From contig CATQHZ020000001.1 of assembly GCA_958296135.2 (NCBI GenBank), positions 2,112,001 through 2,176,000 of the forward strand: 64,000 nt of DNA. The letters run 5' to 3'. Origin of the DNA: an uncultured Poribacteria bacterium. GTDB lineage: Bacteria; Poribacteria; WGA-4E; WGA-3G. The translations under genes and the position numbers were made by a program. The stretch's first letter is position 1. Each line of letters opens with the position of its first letter. Positions 6,476 to 12,001 of this stretch are shown in pieces. The notes under the pieces were generated by a model that was not told where the DNA came from, did not search any database, and saw only the letters and a list, made by a program, of their open reading frames with translations.

Positions 6476-7696
6476 ATGGCACTACGAAGTCGAATCTCGT
6501 CACGGTTCCTCGTCAATGAACTTGCCACCGCCATCTCGGAGGATTGGCGGACCTCGCGCAAGTTCATGCAATACCAACTGGCGAAAGAGAGTTTTAACCT
6601 GCGCCACCCGTTCGGCGCAAAGCACGGCAGAGGCGATGCATTGCAACTCGTCAGCCTCCGCATTACGGACATGTGTAACCTCCGCTGCCACTCCTGTGGG
6701 CAATGGGGTGACAACGGTTACCTCCTGGGGCAATCGCTCAAAGACCTGAAAGCGCGCGAAGTCCCCGTTGAAACCTATAAAAACCTCGTGGACCAGATCG
6801 TCGACCTCGGCTGGTCCCCCGTCTGGTATATCTGGGGCGGCGAACCGATGCTTTACCCCGGCCTCATCGAACTGATGCACTACATCAAGGATAAGGGGAT
6901 GCCGATTTCCCTCGTGAGTAACGCCACCAACATCGCTAAACGCGCGGACGATATTTTGGAAACCTGCAAAATTGTCTACCTCAGCGTTGACGGCCCAAAC
7001 GAGGAAATCCACAACACGCAGCGCCCCGGCGTTTCCGCGAAATATGACAACTTCAAAGATGTCAAAGCCGCCCTTGAAACGCTGAACGCGGCGAAGGAAC
7101 GCCAGCAACTCGCCTTCCCTTATATCATCCCGCTTAGCTGCGTAACGATGTATAACATTGATGTCGTGGTGGATCTCTACAAATTCACCAGTCAATACGC
7201 CGACGCACAGATTTTTTACCTGACATGGTGGATCGACTCGCAATCCGCGCAAGAACACACGGAGGACTTTGAGAACCGGTTCGGATTCAAACCACAGACG
7301 CACTACGGATGGATAGGCACCTGGAAAGATTTCGACCACGGCTTAATCCTGGATAAGTTTGCGGAAATGGAGAGCCTCTCCGAAAAGCAGAAACGGTGCC
7401 CGCCGGTGATGATGCCGAGGCTCAACACGCGCGGCGAAATCCAACGTTACTACACAGACCATCAGCAAACCTTCGGGTATAACCAGTGCGTCAGCATCTA
7501 TATGACGATGGAGATCGATAGTAACGGCGACGTGAGCCTCTGCCGCGATTACCACGACTACATCATCGGCAATATCAAAACCGATGCAGTCGCCGATATG
7601 TGGAATAACCAGAAAGCCATGAAGTTCCGCCAGTCCATCAGCGAAGACGGCCCCATGCCAGTCTGCCGCCGTTGCTGCGGGTTGATGGGATTTTAA
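6476..7696 (+). CDS. Radical SAM protein with SPASM/twitch domain
   Basis: CNLRCHSC, GGEP, C-terminal C..G.V..C...IGN...W...CRRCC. Confidence 0.9.
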   Translation: MALRSRISSRFLVNELATAISEDWRTSRKFMQYQLAKESFNLRHPFGAKHGRGDALQLVSLRITDMCNLRCHSCGQWGDNGYLLGQSLKDLKAREVPVETYKNLVDQIVDLGWSPVWYIWGGEPMLYPGLIELMHYIKDKGMPISLVSNATNIAKRADDILETCKIVYLSVDGPNEEIHNTQRPGVSAKYDNFKDVKAALETLNAAKERQQLAFPYIIPLSCVTMYNIDVVVDLYKFTSQYADAQIFYLTWWIDSQSAQEHTEDFENRFGFKPQTHYGWIGTWKDFDHGLILDKFAEMESLSEKQKRCPPVMMPRLNTRGEIQRYYTDHQQTFGYNQCVSIYMTMEIDSNGDVSLCRDYHDYIIGNIKTDAVADMWNNQKAMKFRQSISEDGPMPVCRRCCGLMGF

Positions 7697-7787
7697 GCCC
7701 ATCATTCACCGTAGGGCTCGGTGCAGTGGCGAGAACCATAAGAGAATCTAGCAGAACCTACCCTAATCTAGCAGTGTGCATTTTGAC

Positions 7788-7816
7788 TTGCATTTCGCTT
7801 GGACTTATGGTATAAT
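7788..7816 (+). promoter_or_regulatory. Putative sigma70 promoter of tnpB
   Basis: TTGCAT-17 nt-TATAAT with extended -10. Confidence 0.6.
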
Positions 7817-7923
7817 ATAGTTACCGTTGGGAGGTGAGACCTACTAAGCGCGGCATCCCGCCGTGTCTCTCACCTCCACCTTACCTTAGTAGGAAGGAAA
7901 AACAACGGCGAACGGTGACGCCT

Positions 7924-9168
7924 ATGGCATTGAAAACGCATTTAATGGCGTTGGACCCGAATAATAAGCAGGCGACGCTGCTTGCAAAGCACTGCGGCTA
8001 TGCCCGCGTGGCACGTAACCATGCGCTCTCGGAATTCAAGGCGGCACTCGATCGCGATGAATTCCTATCCGATATGGACTTGCGCAAAAGATTCAACGCC
8101 GTGAAAGATGAACGCTACCCGTGGTGTCGCGAGCTCAGTCAAAATGCATCGAAGAATGGGATTTGCACGCTCGGTGATGCAGTGAAACGCTGGGTCTCTA
8201 AACAGAACCGCTTCCCGCGCTATAAGCACCGATCTGGTAGGAGTTCCTACCAAGCTGACAATGGCGCAGGCACGGTGAAGGTGGAGAAAAAGCGTGTCAA
8301 CCTCCCGAAGATTGGCTGGGTTCGCCTGCGCGAGAAGTTGCGTTGGCGTGGCGAGATTCGGCGGTGTGTCGTCTCAAAACGTGCAGGCAGGTGGTTTCTA
8401 TCGGTTCTCGTGAAGGTGGTTTCCGACAGTGCGCCACGTGTGCGTTCTGAGGCGGGTCCTATGCGGGTAGTTGGTGTTGATGTAGGTATCAAAACCCTAG
8501 CCGTGACATCCGATGGTGTTGAGTTTGAAAACCCGAAGGCACTCTACCGCTATCTACGGAAGTTGCGGCGTGCGCAGCGTCAGCTCTCTCGTTCGGTTTA
8601 CCGAAGCAGAAACTGGTATCGGAAGCAGTTCCGCGTACAGAAGATTCACTATCGTATCTGCTGTCTGCGTGAGGATGCACATCATAAGGCAAGCACGGCG
8701 ATTGTGAAGGCGGCTGACGTTCTCGGCATCGAGAGTCTTCGTGTGGCGGGCTTGTTGAAAAACCGCCGTCTTGCAAAGGCGTTGAGCGATGCGTCATTGA
8801 GCGGTTTCTTGACGATGCTTCGGTATAAGGCAGAGGCACGTGGTGTTGAGATTATCGAAGCACCGTCGAACTTCCCATCATCGAAGACGTGCAGTGCTTG
8901 CGGGAATAAAAAGAAAAAGTTGTCCCTCTCGGAGCGGACATATCACTGCGAGGCATGTGGCGTGGTCATCGACCGCGACTTGAATGCAGCGTATAACTTA
9001 AGAACCCTCGCCGCTAGCTTGACGGAGAGGCAAAACGGCTGCGGAGCGACTATAAGCCCTCAGAGTAGGCACACCTCGTGTGTCTCGGAGGCACGCCGCG
9101 TTGAAACAGCAACTACGACAGATAAGAGGACAGGTCAGATTCGGATAGATTTGTCCAGACTATCATAA
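7924..9168 (+). CDS. tnpB: RNA-guided endonuclease TnpB
   Basis: RuvC motifs GVDVGI, IESL and DRDLNAA; zinc finger CSAC...CEAC; LPKIGWVR. Confidence 0.92.
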   Translation: MALKTHLMALDPNNKQATLLAKHCGYARVARNHALSEFKAALDRDEFLSDMDLRKRFNAVKDERYPWCRELSQNASKNGICTLGDAVKRWVSKQNRFPRYKHRSGRSSYQADNGAGTVKVEKKRVNLPKIGWVRLREKLRWRGEIRRCVVSKRAGRWFLSVLVKVVSDSAPRVRSEAGPMRVVGVDVGIKTLAVTSDGVEFENPKALYRYLRKLRRAQRQLSRSVYRSRNWYRKQFRVQKIHYRICCLREDAHHKASTAIVKAADVLGIESLRVAGLLKNRRLAKALSDASLSGFLTMLRYKAEARGVEIIEAPSNFPSSKTCSACGNKKKKLSLSERTYHCEACGVVIDRDLNAAYNLRTLAASLTERQNGCGATISPQSRHTSCVSEARRVETATTTDKRTGQIRIDLSRLS

Positions 9169-9182
9169 GTTCTAGGGAGCGG
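9008..9182 (+). ncRNA. TnpB omegaRNA (right-end RNA) scaffold
   Basis: Overlaps the tnpB 3' end; aligns with 10498-10650 with compensatory changes. Confidence 0.65.
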
Positions 9183-9224
9183 CGAGATATCCATATCCGC
9201 CTATCTAATCAGAAGGAAGAATTA

Positions 9225-10088
9225 ATGAAAATTGGATTACGTATTCCCGGCACAGCCCGTCAATTGCCGTTCGCCGATTTCTGTCGGTGGTGCGCCGATA
9301 ACGGGTTTGAAGCCGTTGACATTGGAGAAACCACGCCCGAAATTGTCAAAACCGCGCGAGATGCCGGGCTCGCCATCGGCACCGCAGATTTGCCGGGAGT
9401 GAGAGAGCTCCTCAGTCCCAAAAAGTCAAAACAGAAAGCAGGAGCTTCCGCTGCGAAAGCCGCTATCCAAGCCGCCGCAGACAACGACGTGCGCATCATG
9501 TTCTGCGTCTTTGTCCCGGAGGATGCCAGCCTCGGCCGCGCCAAAAACTTCGAGATTTGGAAGCAGACTCTCCCGCCGATCGCCGAGTTCGCCGCGGAGA
9601 ACGGTGTCACTATCGCCGTGGAGGGATGGCCGGGCCCTGCGCCTGCCTATCCGGCCCTCGGCTGCACACCGGAGATGTGGCGCGCGATGTTCGCCGAATG
9701 CGATTCCCCAGGGCTGGGACTCAACTACGATCCCTCGCACCTCGTCCGCATCGGGATTGACTACCTGCGCGCCCTGCACGAATTCGCGCCCTACGTCAAA
9801 CACGTCCACGGCAAGGACACCGTCTTTGACGAAGAAGCACTCTATCTGCACGGCAATCTCGGACCGAGTTTCGGCAACGCCCGCGGCTTCGGCGAAGACT
9901 GGTGGCGGTACACGATTCCCGGTGATGGCATTGTGGATTGGCTGAAAGTCGTGCAACGCTTGGAAGACGAAGGTTTTGACGGCATCGTCAGCGTTGAACT
10001 TGAAGATTATCGCTATTGGCGCACGTGGGAGTCAGAGTCTGATGGACTCCGCCGTTCCCGCGAATTCCTCGCGCAGTATGTGCGATAA
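9225..10088 (+). CDS. Sugar phosphate isomerase/epimerase (xylose isomerase-like TIM barrel)
   Basis: AVE, GLNYDPSH, HVHGKD, PGDG.VDW and SVELED motifs. Confidence 0.85.
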   Translation: MKIGLRIPGTARQLPFADFCRWCADNGFEAVDIGETTPEIVKTARDAGLAIGTADLPGVRELLSPKKSKQKAGASAAKAAIQAAADNDVRIMFCVFVPEDASLGRAKNFEIWKQTLPPIAEFAAENGVTIAVEGWPGPAPAYPALGCTPEMWRAMFAECDSPGLGLNYDPSHLVRIGIDYLRALHEFAPYVKHVHGKDTVFDEEALYLHGNLGPSFGNARGFGEDWWRYTIPGDGIVDWLKVVQRLEDEGFDGIVSVELEDYRYWRTWESESDGLRRSREFLAQYVR

Positions 10089-10105
10089 GCCGCATTTTCA
10101 TCAAA

Positions 10106-10168
10106 CCGGTAGGCGCGGTTTGCAACCGCGCCCCCATGCTAGCGCGCTTACAAAGCGCGCCTACCGGA
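10106..10168. repeat. Inverted pair of GTAG-type REP palindromes
   Basis: ccggtaggcgcggtttgcaaccgcgcc ... gcgcgcttacaaagcgcgcctaccgg; similar copies near 4560, 13768, 41902, 56655 and 60917. Confidence 0.75.
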
Positions 10169-10203
10169 ATTACCGATTTAAACCACACTACCAAGGAGGA
10201 GAG

Positions 10204-10650
10204 TGCTAGAGCCCGAAAATCCGAGTAAATCGATTGAATTCTCGGTAAGTCTCGTTAATTCGTAACATATCTGATTTAAGTAGTTTTATCTCTCAGATGA
10301 GAGGATGGCGAACGGAGCGTGAAGAACGTTTCCTGCTGCACGATACCAAGAGGCATGTGTAATGTCCTAACCCCCCGTGTGAAGCGGATTAAGAGTCGGC
10401 GGTGCGCAGGCATCACTGACGGTGGAGGGAGCTGTAAGTCCGACGCGATTCCCGAAAGGATTGTCTCGCTGCAGTATCTAAGACTACAAAACCAACGTCG
10501 CGGCTGGTTTGACCGAGACGTAAAACGCCTGTGGAGCTCGCGTAAGACCTCGTAGTATTCGCATTTCGGTGCGTTTCGGAGGCGGTAAGTGATGAAGCAG
10601 GAACTTAGAAGTCTCGACTTATCTCGATATGTTGAGACTTCGGGGAACAG
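10204..10650 (+). mobile_element. Protein-free IS607-like mini-element with omegaRNA scaffold
   Basis: 3' part (10498-10650) is homologous to the tnpB right end; AG at both junctions; aagtctcg motif at both ends; removal rejoins aaggagg to the ATG at 10659. Confidence 0.65.
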
Positions 10651-10658
10651 AAAACACC

Positions 10659-11552
10659 ATGAACGGAGAATGTCTTGCGCATCTACTCACAGAAGAAGAA
10701 CGGACCCGTTTTGAAGAGCAGGGATACCTCTACGTGCCGAATGCCCTCTCCCCAGATGTGGTTGAGCAGTTAACGCACGCCGTGGATACCCTGCACAACA
10801 AGGCACTCGCCAACGGCAGAGCCACGCCCGGCAGTCCCTGGGGCTGGTCAGATTTTTTAAGAGAAGACGACGCGCTCCTAAATCTCGTCGACTGGCCGCG
10901 GACGTTGCCCAAGGTCTGGGGCATTTTGGGGTGGAATATCTATCTCTACCACGCGCACATGCACGTCAAACCGCCCGCGCCACCCGATGCGAAAGAAGGG
11001 GAGGGCTGGCTGGAGTGGCATCAAGACAGCGGCCGCGTCAACGTTGAACTGGAAACCAACCCGCGCCCACGCTTGTCGCTGAAGGTGGCATATTTCCTCA
11101 CGGATGTCTCTGAACCGGGGCGCGGCAATTTTTATATTCGTCCCGGCAGTCACCTCGCGGATATGGCGGTGCCAGAGGACGAAATCAGCCGCGACCCGCG
11201 CGAGCAGACCGCGGACGATGTCCCTGACGATGCGATGCCGGTCTGTGTGGAGCCGGGGACCGCCGTGCTGTTCGACAGACGGCTCTGGCATTCGCGCAGT
11301 CCGAACCATTCGCAGCTGACGCGGAAGGCACTCTTCTACGGCTATGGGTATCGGTGGATCCGTCAGAAAGACGAGATGACGGTGGAACCCCTTTATGAAC
11401 GGTGCGATCCGATTCGTCGGCAGCTGCTCGGTGCCGCTGTGCGGAACAACGGCCGTTATGTTCCTTCGGAAGAGGATGTGCCGCTGCGCGGATGGCTCGT
11501 TGAGCAATTCGGCGAGAAACCGGCGTATGCGATGGGGCCGCGGCATGCTTAG
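10659..11552 (+). CDS. Phytanoyl-CoA dioxygenase (PhyH) family protein
   Basis: FEEQGYL, WHQD, LTD..G...PGSH, LWH..PN.S...RK motifs. Confidence 0.9.
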   Translation: MNGECLAHLLTEEERTRFEEQGYLYVPNALSPDVVEQLTHAVDTLHNKALANGRATPGSPWGWSDFLREDDALLNLVDWPRTLPKVWGILGWNIYLYHAHMHVKPPAPPDAKEGEGWLEWHQDSGRVNVELETNPRPRLSLKVAYFLTDVSEPGRGNFYIRPGSHLADMAVPEDEISRDPREQTADDVPDDAMPVCVEPGTAVLFDRRLWHSRSPNHSQLTRKALFYGYGYRWIRQKDEMTVEPLYERCDPIRRQLLGAAVRNNGRYVPSEEDVPLRGWLVEQFGEKPAYAMGPRHA

Positions 11553-12001
11553 AGAATGATGGGCGGACTTCCATAGCTGAATAGGAAGTTCCGCCTACCC
11601 GATATGAGAAATTTCTGCGTTTTTCTGAACCTTTTCACGAAATCTTGTCCTCATTAAAAGAGAAATTTGATCCAACTTCGATTTGCGGATAGATCTACTT
11701 GATTCCCAATATTACATTTTGGATTTTACTTATAAATGATGATCCGGCGAAGTCTAGGCATTCGGAGTATCGTTTATTAGGGCGTTAAAGCAGCAGGCAA
11801 GTAGAGGCTTTCTCTAGTTCAATTCCAGGGGCGCGCATCGGCCGTCAATGGGCCGGTCGGAGTGCTAACAAGCAGGCCGCCGACGGCCCCCATTCTATTC
11901 CACGATAAAGAAGTTTCAAAATGGAAATGTGTTTCTCTCCCCAATGCGCCGCGGTGGACCAACTCCCGCCGGGGTTAGGGAGGTTCATCCAGACGCTTCT
12001 C

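Follow-up and report, generated by a model that had tools for sequence, protein, structure and literature searches.

The closest described counterparts of the element analyzed here are IS607-family transposons whose TnpB proteins work with a guide RNA. According to the main-text parts of Ren et al. (2024, PMC11061315), RAGATH-18 RNAs form the core of the reRNA of IS607 TnpBs, and the TAM of these proteins reads 5'-AGGAG in 18 of 22 strains; in the other 4 it is GAGGG. In the ISFba1 system the scaffold is 187 nt long, and no single change in the TAM was tolerated by its TnpB (PMC11061315). The same parts of that report give 36% of RAGATH-18 RNAs as not adjoining a TnpB and do not characterize them further.

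A second point of comparison is CboIStron. The relevant parts of one preprint (10.1101/2023.11.20.567912) report that a mini-IS without genes is cut out in trans, in circular form, by the IS607 recombinase TnpA_S, which requires matching core dinucleotides, that TnpB cuts the donor joint and can use omegaRNA supplied in trans, and that the introns of IStrons match the Rfam group I model. A figure legend in the same preprint names PATE, an ORF-less derivative of IS200/IS605.

The window is a 64,000-nt stretch of DNA from an uncultured Poribacteria bacterium, and it holds a 452-nt gene-less element that can be compared with each of these systems. Its parts and its surroundings, in window coordinates, are as follows (a caret marks a junction).

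7717–9182, + strand: neighboring TnpB-1 element (tnpB at 7924–9168) with Pfam domains OrfB_IS605, Cas12f1-like_TNB, and HTH_OrfB_IS605; a GG-core IS607-type family
10193–10198, + strand: target/TAM motif AAGGAG abutting the left end, also the Shine-Dalgarno (SD) sequence of the PhyH gene; from the G002 empty site AAGGAG^AAAACACCATG, the left-flank counts, and the published TAM
10199–10650, + strand: IS607-family mini-element, classed as non-autonomous, 452 nt; boundaries from comparison of occupied and empty sites
10199–10270, + strand: left end; 10204–10232 is common to two complete IS607 copies; AAATC(C)GAG-like repeats, inverted again in the right end
10280–10487, + strand: conserved, probably folded RNA domain of ~200 nt with a closing helix and hairpins; confined to ORF-less mini-elements
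10453–10454, no strand: insert site in a hairpin loop; nested palindromic inserts of 88–261 nt in 4 other copies, empty in the window copy
10464–10650, + strand: putative omegaRNA/reRNA scaffold; 187-nt extent by analogy with ISFba1; supported helices include 10496–10520; RAGATH-18 core at 10528–10603
10567–10568, no strand: insert site in the apical loop of the RAGATH-18 stem; palindromic inserts of 90–180 nt in all 6 other copies, empty in the window copy
10608–10650, + strand: right end, with a subterminal hairpin GAAGTCTC...GAGACTTC (10608–10641) and the terminus GGGGAACAG
10651–10670, + strand: flank that would be the guide (AAAACACCATGAACGGAGAA), immediately after the scaffold; in the G002 empty allele, AAGGAG is followed by these 20 nt
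10659–11552, + strand: downstream host gene, a PhyH-family dioxygenase (Pfam PF05721, E 6.1e-18, profile positions 1–213), which the insertion parts from its SD sequence

As in the ISFba1-type systems described in parts of PMC11061315, a RAGATH-18-like core with conserved flanks lies at the right end of the mini-element, the guide would come from the flank, and AGGAG abuts the left end; a likely partner TnpB of about 360 aa is encoded in the same genome. The mini-element differs from those systems in having neither tnpB nor tnpA inside, in an Rfam score below threshold, in the probable ~200-nt folded domain upstream of the scaffold, and in its host, which is not a Firmicute. With CboIStron, as far as the preprint parts describe it (10.1101/2023.11.20.567912), it appears to share mobilization by a serine recombinase TnpA, and it has a core dinucleotide at both junctions, a scaffold ending at the right boundary, and a probable long structured RNA on the 5' side. 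It also resembles the laboratory mini-IS of that work, which lacks both genes, is excised in trans, and has an omegaRNA that works in trans. The two differ in core and TAM (AG and AGGAG here, GG and TGGG in CboIStron), and the mini-element is natural and multicopy, with a 5' RNA that the Rfam model, the test used in that work, does not recognize as a group I intron.

Gene-less elements are also found in a different transposon family. PATEs and MITEs were reportedly described by Meers et al. in 2023 as ORF-less derivatives of IS200/IS605. Like these, the mini-element keeps transposon ends, carries no genes, exists in several copies, and would use helpers in trans. Unlike PATEs, it has ends and a presumptive helper of the IS607/serine-recombinase type rather than the Y1/hairpin type, and it keeps a full guide scaffold together with an additional conserved RNA domain. 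Two Y1_Tnp matches are present in the genome (C1:3734478 and C1:4791155), neither beside a mini-element. The parts of the mini-element are already known; what looks new is the natural gene-less form and an accessory RNA domain that occurs across two end types.

Boundaries and Empty Sites

The element lies between a sugar-phosphate-isomerase-like ORF (9225–10088) and the PhyH-family gene, with junctions that read ...ACCAAGGAG^GAGAGTGCTAG......TTCGGGGAACAG^AAAACACCATGAACGG. Orthologues of the PhyH gene are found in 40 of 41 related genomes. G002, from the same genus, has an exact empty site, ACAAGGAG^AAAACACCATGAACGGAGAATGTCTTGCGCA, i.e., AAGGAG^AAAACACCATG, and this bears out the original prediction of an insertion between a ribosome-binding site and its start codon. 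Of the extent given by that prediction, 10204–10650, the right end holds and the left boundary lies 5 nt further left, at 10199. The AG junctions it described are found at 10197–10198 and 10649–10650; because each junction shows AG and the empty site has it a single time, the extents 10199–10650 and 10197–10648 are interchangeable. The leader that it expected upon removal of the element (aaggaggagag plus aaaacacc plus ATG) is replaced by AAGGAG followed by AAAACACC and ATG.

The PhyH site is also empty in further genomes, G004 and G005 among them. In more distant relatives it reads AAGGAGAATTTACCATG or a close variant, and the distance from SD to ATG is unchanged. There is no target-site duplication. 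The same core dinucleotide, AG, is found at both ends and once in the empty sites AAGGAG^AAAACACC, a pattern that fits the IS607 family. The boundary rule drawn from the PhyH site is confirmed by two other empty sites. The mutS site, into which a 1.4-kb relative with tnpB (a TnpB-2 insertion) has gone in this genome, is empty in G001, where it reads AAAGGAG^AACGCTATG with a joint that begins AAAGGAG^AACG, and the mtnA site is empty in G002. Contigs from the source sample (4 runs, one sample), which drop rare variants, bridge both junctions and show no joint that skips the element.

The Guide-RNA Scaffold

The 3' part of the element had been read as a guide-RNA scaffold kept without its protein, from an alignment of 10498–10605 with the 3' end of the window tnpB (9008–9114). 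The similarity is real, with 74 of 109 aligned columns of the scaffold core identical (68%). The three compensatory swaps cited for it are present (CGG/CCG versus CCG/CGG, CCUG/CAGG versus GCUG/CAGC, and the apical hairpin), and they belong to a wider pattern of covariation. RNAalifold was applied to 17 scaffolds: the one analyzed here, those of four tnpB families from the same genome, and those of mini-elements from this genome and G004. It predicted 17 pairs with 94.1% of cells paired, and both sides change in 13 of the 17. None of 500 shuffles reached any of five measures, and slid controls paired in 38.8–57.0%.

The Rfam RAGATH-18 model (RF03064) matches 10528–10603 over its full length (1–71) at 22.3 bits and E 0.11, which is under the gathering score of 44.9. 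Homology and conserved pairing are shared with scaffolds located downstream of tnpB genes. The scaffold end coincides with the right transposon boundary and the TAM with the left, as judged from the empty sites, the AGGAG flank, and the published TAM. The 3' ~190 nt of the element, with strong support from covariation, can be assigned as a RAGATH-18-type TnpB guide-RNA (omegaRNA/reRNA) scaffold, for which TnpB binding and guided DNA cleavage are putative functions.

The flank proposed earlier as the guide (AAAACACCATGAACGG...) is the correct one for this boundary. A guide role for 10651–10670 would follow by analogy with IS607 TnpB biology as covered in parts of two reports (PMC11061315; 10.1101/2023.11.20.567912). 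A promoter scan of the + strand from 9900 to 10800 gave no sigma-70-like prediction, so expression of the guide RNA would need read-through or an unrecognized promoter. A search for RNA sequencing runs containing the locus gave none.

Candidate Helper Proteins in Trans

A tblastn search of the genome found 32 tnpB loci in three groups: TnpB-1 with 10, TnpB-2 with 8, and TnpB-3 with 14. The scaffold core of the mini-element is 82–85% identical to those of TnpB-2, 57–68% to those of TnpB-1, and 39–47% to those of TnpB-3, while identity to the TnpB-2 scaffolds is only 52–53% in the 3' third. All 8 TnpB-2 genes, one of them at C1:3386685–3387764, are apparently unbroken, and one copy (360 aa) has the three TnpB Pfam domains. 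TnpB-2 elements start (R)GAG^GACGTTCCTAGC... and finish ...TTTCAGGGAACAG; flank motif and terminus are as in the mini-element, and the two have the ...GGGAACAG end in common. TnpB-2 is the likely partner of the mini-element, a pairing that rests on sequence likeness.

The original prediction that TnpB and a serine recombinase are borrowed in trans is borne out to the extent that possible helpers exist (8 TnpB-2 and 2 IS607 TnpA). It is not supported for the aligned TnpB itself (7924–9168), with scaffold identity of 68% versus 82–85%, ends of the GG type (...GGGAGCGG), and a GGG flank. The TnpB-1 left end reads GGG^CTCGGTGCAGTGGCG (GGG^CTCGGTGCAGTGG... in the window copy), and these ends are common to the 10 TnpB-1 loci. 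Since the window TnpB-1 belongs to this GG-core family, it is an unlikely partner.

The genome has 3 resolvase-domain genes, none within the window, and 2 of them belong to complete IS607 copies. These encode TnpA proteins of 207 and 208 aa with a MerR-type HTH and a Resolvase domain (Pfam), plus a TnpB; the 207-aa TnpA is encoded at C1:3568352–3568975. Their left end, GAG^TTGAGTGCTAGACCCCGAAAATCCGAGT.AATCG, is 93% identical to 10204–10232 (BLAST, element positions 1–29), with the matches located beside the serine-recombinase genes at C1:3569011–3569039 and C1:4838015–4838043. The right end of the complete copies is ...AAAGGAACAG, the ...GGAACAG terminus of the mini-element is common to them and to the TnpB-2 elements, and TCTCGA(T/C)(T/A)T motifs are common to the mini-element and the complete copies. 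The AAATC(C)GAG-like repeats in the ends of the mini-element are putative TnpA sites. Contigs from the source sample branch after 10232 into full IS607 sequence. Because the two IS607 copies encode a recombinase and share the left end, mobilization in trans is plausible. Mobilization by the IS607 TnpA combined with guide use by TnpB-2 would be a plausible arrangement, given these likenesses and the behavior reported in parts of 10.1101/2023.11.20.567912.

Copies of the Element and Their Inserts

Other copies and empty sites in relatives, by which the original prediction could be checked, were both found. There are 7 copies of the mini-element in this genome, the window copy and 6 more at 90–100% identity. 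Over the final 83 nt, identity is 100% for 4 of the others, 99% for a fifth, and 90% for the sixth. Five of the 6 share the left-flank motif AAGGAG and the terminus ...GGGGAACAG. The copy at C1:~3031908–3032448 is without the first 53 nt and must be immobile, because its left end is missing.

The other copies are longer, at 541–798 nt versus 447 nt for the window copy (counted from 10204). They carry palindromic inserts of 88–261 nt at two points (10453/10454 and 10567/10568), both hairpin loops, and each insert can itself form a long hairpin. Of the 7 copies, only that in the window is free of inserts. No ORF is conserved among the copies, in agreement with the original prediction, and the element is classed as non-autonomous since no serine recombinase TnpA is encoded within it. 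A small protein was considered and rejected, as the 78-aa ORF at 10319–10555 is broken by the inserts in other copies. As a separate observation, an in-frame ATG at 10629 matches the host frame solely in the window copy, as judged from the spacers.

These copies could instead be relics that were once mobile, with a guide RNA and ends that are unused today and a conservation that reflects recent copying. The lack of a predicted promoter, the loss of the left end in one copy, and the presence of large palindromic inserts inside the RNA of 6 of the 7 copies all point this way. We nevertheless consider a relic unlikely, although not negligibly so. The copies are 90–100% identical with right ends that are 100% identical in 4 other copies, the helper genes are intact, and changes within the family in the 10395–10420 hairpin keep or improve pairing. 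The spread of the same cargo also extends to G004, with 23 matches there and ends of another type. The inserts are confined to hairpin loops, in two regions that match ones reported as dispensable in the ISFba1 reRNA, i.e., the loops of stem-loops SL1 and SL3 (parts of PMC11061315).

Insertion at Ribosome-Binding Sites

The AG-type family has 16 intact left flanks, from 6 mini-elements, 8 TnpB-2 elements, and 2 full IS607 copies. All 16 end in GAG, and 11 read AGGAG. A start codon (of an ORF of at least 60 aa) is located 4–30 nt after the right end in 14 of 17 family members, which is explained by the published TAM, AGGAG, being the SD core. When 15 downstream ORFs were scanned (the 14 plus a 75-aa ORF at +36 from its right end), 10 had Pfam domains above cut-off that start at the N terminus: PhyH, MutS, IF-2B family, TPP enzyme, M24 peptidase, ABC ATPase, MoCF, formyltransferase, HEPN/NTase, and Macro. 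Methionyl-tRNA formyltransferase and an IF-2B-family isomerase are among the products.

Genome-wide, AGGAG sites lie 4–12 nt before an ORF of at least 100 codons in 1,720 of 10,263 cases (16.8%). The same is true of 9 of the 11 AGGAG-flanked insertions (binomial P = 4e-6), which indicates a bias beyond the motif alone. The simplest cause is selection that removes intragenic insertions; a preference for a longer target is also possible. One TnpB-2 copy interrupts a hicB-like ORF, precisely in frame. Full-length TnpB-2 elements without the extra RNA domain occupy the same kind of site as the mini-elements, for example before mutS. A literature search found no paper on IS607/TnpB at Shine-Dalgarno sequences or ribosome-binding sites, or on non-autonomous or MITE forms of IS607.

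At the PhyH locus, the gene is probably still translatable at a lower level by way of the purine-rich element end GGGGAACAG, 8 nt before the ATG, and switching of the host gene by excision is possible. Such positions invite the reading that the element is a domesticated cis-regulatory leader, in which the RNA (e.g., with TnpB-2 or a ligand bound near the start codon) controls downstream translation. The guide region does overlap the start codon, 8 nt separate the end of the scaffold from the ATG, and exapted relatives of TnpB are said, in the TldR papers, to act as RNA-guided regulators. Against this, the downstream genes are functionally unrelated, the sites are empty in close relatives, and the surroundings of the GG-type copies vary, one example being the interior of a hicB-like ORF. 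The high identity of the copies favors recent transposition over an old regulatory recruitment, and a regulatory leader is very unlikely.

A Probable Folded RNA Domain of Gene-Less Elements

Upstream of the scaffold, 10280–10487 is proposed to fold with a 9-bp closing helix (10280–10288 with 10479–10487) and hairpins at ~10289–10304, 10314–10333, 10395–10420, and 10445–10469. On 15 copies, the 40 proposed pairs are paired in 91.7% versus 35.4–58.0% when slid. Both sides change in 8 pairs, a count reached by 26 of 500 shuffles, and the covariation score is 0.123 versus 0.080, a value reached by none of 500. This is modest evidence, as it covers three lineages and a fold derived from these same sequences, with 5 of the 20 copies then known left out because large loop inserts broke the alignment. 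The minimum free energy fold of the single sequence gives the same helices, and of the two strands the + strand gives the better fold (z −1.75 versus −0.84). The domain is probably a real RNA structure. For a pairing of the two RNA ends that would bring the SD sequence and AUG together, only a 6-bp match, CCCGAA/UUCGGG, was seen by eye.

No Rfam family matched the domain. An origin as a decayed tnpB fragment or a left-end leader was considered and rejected, since its similarity to four TnpB families and to their leaders in local alignments is no higher than that of shuffled sequences; nhmmer matches the domain in mini-elements only, which likewise discounts a tnpB remnant. Its occurrence within this genome is limited to the 7 AG-type mini-elements and 2 others with TnpB-1-like GG-type ends (C1:~2911300–2911700 and C1:~3280280–3280700); it accompanies the scaffold in mini-elements with two different end types. 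Mini-elements of G004, from another genus, carry it too, at 70–83% identity. A covariance model built on the 5' half of the domain has 9 matches in this genome (G000) and 23 in G004, and none in the other 149 genomes of the phylum sampled (2 of 151 positive). The 20 G004 copies examined are ORF-less, ~420–730 nt long, and GGG-flanked. Among relatives the domain is found in 2 of 41 genomes, and a BLAST search of the phylum found it in 3 of 176, the third with only a 37-nt fragment. Pattern searches gave 17 loci in genomes of named species, 9 of them in one MAG record and the 8 elsewhere without an nhmmer match to the element. They gave 2 loci in JGI metagenomes, neither homologous, and 2 and 0 loci in IMG/VR, none homologous. 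The search patterns were strict, so divergent relatives of the domain may be missed.

A conserved folded domain without another explanation could suggest that the 5' domain and the 3' end self-splice from the 5' UTR in the manner of an IStron, restoring the spacing between SD and AUG. The original prediction made this comparison. IS607 IStrons do exist (parts of 10.1101/2023.11.20.567912), and the element ends in G and always has the sense orientation within the 5' UTRs of presumably important genes (mutS, fmt, and mtnA). The comparison finds no support at this locus. No match to Rfam group I intron or ribozyme families was obtained in 7000–12000 or in 5 related loci (E≤1), nor in 10150–10700 (E≤10). 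The 5' exon would also end in G, whereas the 5' exon of group I introns ends in U. The same SD-to-ATG gaps are occupied by full-length TnpB-2 and IS607 copies that lack the domain, which argues against a need for splicing, and GG-type mini-elements with the same domain are mostly away from start codons. The sense orientation is explained by the TAM alone. Given that IStron introns match the Rfam model (10.1101/2023.11.20.567912, in part), a self-splicing intron is extremely unlikely here.

Our best guess, weakly held, is that the domain may be a structured leader that stabilizes the guide RNA or helps to process it when no tnpB mRNA lies upstream. A bolder idea is a new functional RNA class that replaces tnpB as the cargo of IS607 mini-elements and is swapped between AG-type and GG-type ends, having spread to the 9 and 23 matches. 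Such an RNA might give a gene-less element an activity of its own, such as the ability to self-process the guide RNA, to recruit or titrate TnpB made by others, or to leave the host mRNA by chemistry other than that of group I introns. We regard this as quite unlikely.

A Model for Mobility and Retention

The element is, very probably, a non-autonomous ORF-less derivative of an IS607-family transposon that would depend on helpers in trans. The model starts from the boundaries, empty sites, and copies, from the homology and covariation of the scaffold, and from the TnpB-2 and TnpA genes that the genome contains. The serine recombinase TnpA from the two complete IS607 copies would recognize the shared left and right ends and excise the mini-element as a circle. 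The circle would re-insert at (A)GGAG by crossover at AG, with no duplication and with AG at both junctions. As AGGAG is the SD core, surviving copies would be those between an SD sequence and a start codon, in gene orientation.

Retention would then involve the guide RNA. The 3' ~190 nt and about 20 nt of the flank would form an omegaRNA/reRNA of the RAGATH-18 type. TnpB-2, acting in trans, could use this RNA to cut the empty donor joint, AGGAG followed by AAAACACCATGAACGGAGAA. Repair of the cut from an occupied copy would retain the element. TnpB could not protect every copy, given that 5 of the 16 flanks are not AGGAG and that the TnpB of ISFba1 tolerates no single TAM change.

Implications for the Family

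The AG-type family would be an RNA-guided transposon family that has the ribosome-binding site as its target. Copies persist between the SD sequence and the start codon of mutS, fmt, and mtnA, and their persistence in these gaps of housekeeping genes raises the question of how translation survives. The mini-element itself would be a natural gene-less IS607 element with a guide RNA that depends on the TnpB and TnpA of others, a form that, among the literature searched, had previously only been made in the laboratory. The extra RNA domain is a candidate for a new accessory part of omegaRNAs, and it could matter for small TnpB editors with an AGGAG TAM.

Neighboring and related IS607 elements

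The mini-element lies downstream of a complete IS607-type element that carries its own tnpB gene:

window 7717-9182, complete TnpB-1 element, GG-core IS607-type family

A putative promoter region with TTGACT/TATAAT-like motifs is found at ~7786-7815 of this element, and its leader contains a long hairpin (7831-7880). The TnpB-1 open reading frame (ORF) extends to 9168, reading through its own guide-RNA scaffold. The same genome holds 10 loci of the TnpB-1 family, two of which are broken. The TnpB-3 group is represented at 14 loci. One of these (C1:3726105-3727701) is a complete IS607 whose family is distinct from the others, with ends ...GTAGTGCGG; here a third serine-recombinase gene sits immediately 5' of the TnpB-3 gene.

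A hicB-like antitoxin ORF is split precisely in frame in both this genome and G004, a genome of a different genus:

G000 C1:~4547230-4549100, hicB-like ORF interrupted by a TnpB-2 element
G004 locus L040, hicB-like ORF interrupted by a GG-type mini

In another genome of the phylum, G166, a lone 37-nt stretch (C1:1891677-1891713, L068) matches the start of the mini-element 5' domain at 86% identity (GGAGGATAGCGAACGGAGCGTGCAGAACG), and the remainder of the domain is absent beside it.

An in-frame ATG in the right end

An ATG at 10629, within the right end of the mini-element, shares its frame with the PhyH ATG (window 10629-10661), and a start there would extend PhyH by 10 residues (MLRLRGTENT). 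This is probably chance, since spacer lengths indicate that the frame fits the downstream gene in the window copy alone.

Palindromes in spacers and hairpin loops

The intergenic spacer at window 10105-10168 contains a 63-nt palindrome with a perfect stem (GGTAGGCGCG...CGCGCCTACC). An Rfam match to a plant microRNA family, on both strands, was judged spurious. The palindrome looks like a member of a REP-like repeat family, because related GTAGGCG...CGCCTAC palindromes are present again at other loci examined.

Other copies of the mini-element carry nested palindromic modules, built from one to three units of ~88-90 nt per insert, at the equivalents of window 10453/10454 and 10567/10568, which are exactly hairpin loops of the mini-element RNA. 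Several TnpB-2 elements have similar modules in their left ends, and a few further places in the genome contain them as well. They look like small mobile palindromes with a preference for loops.
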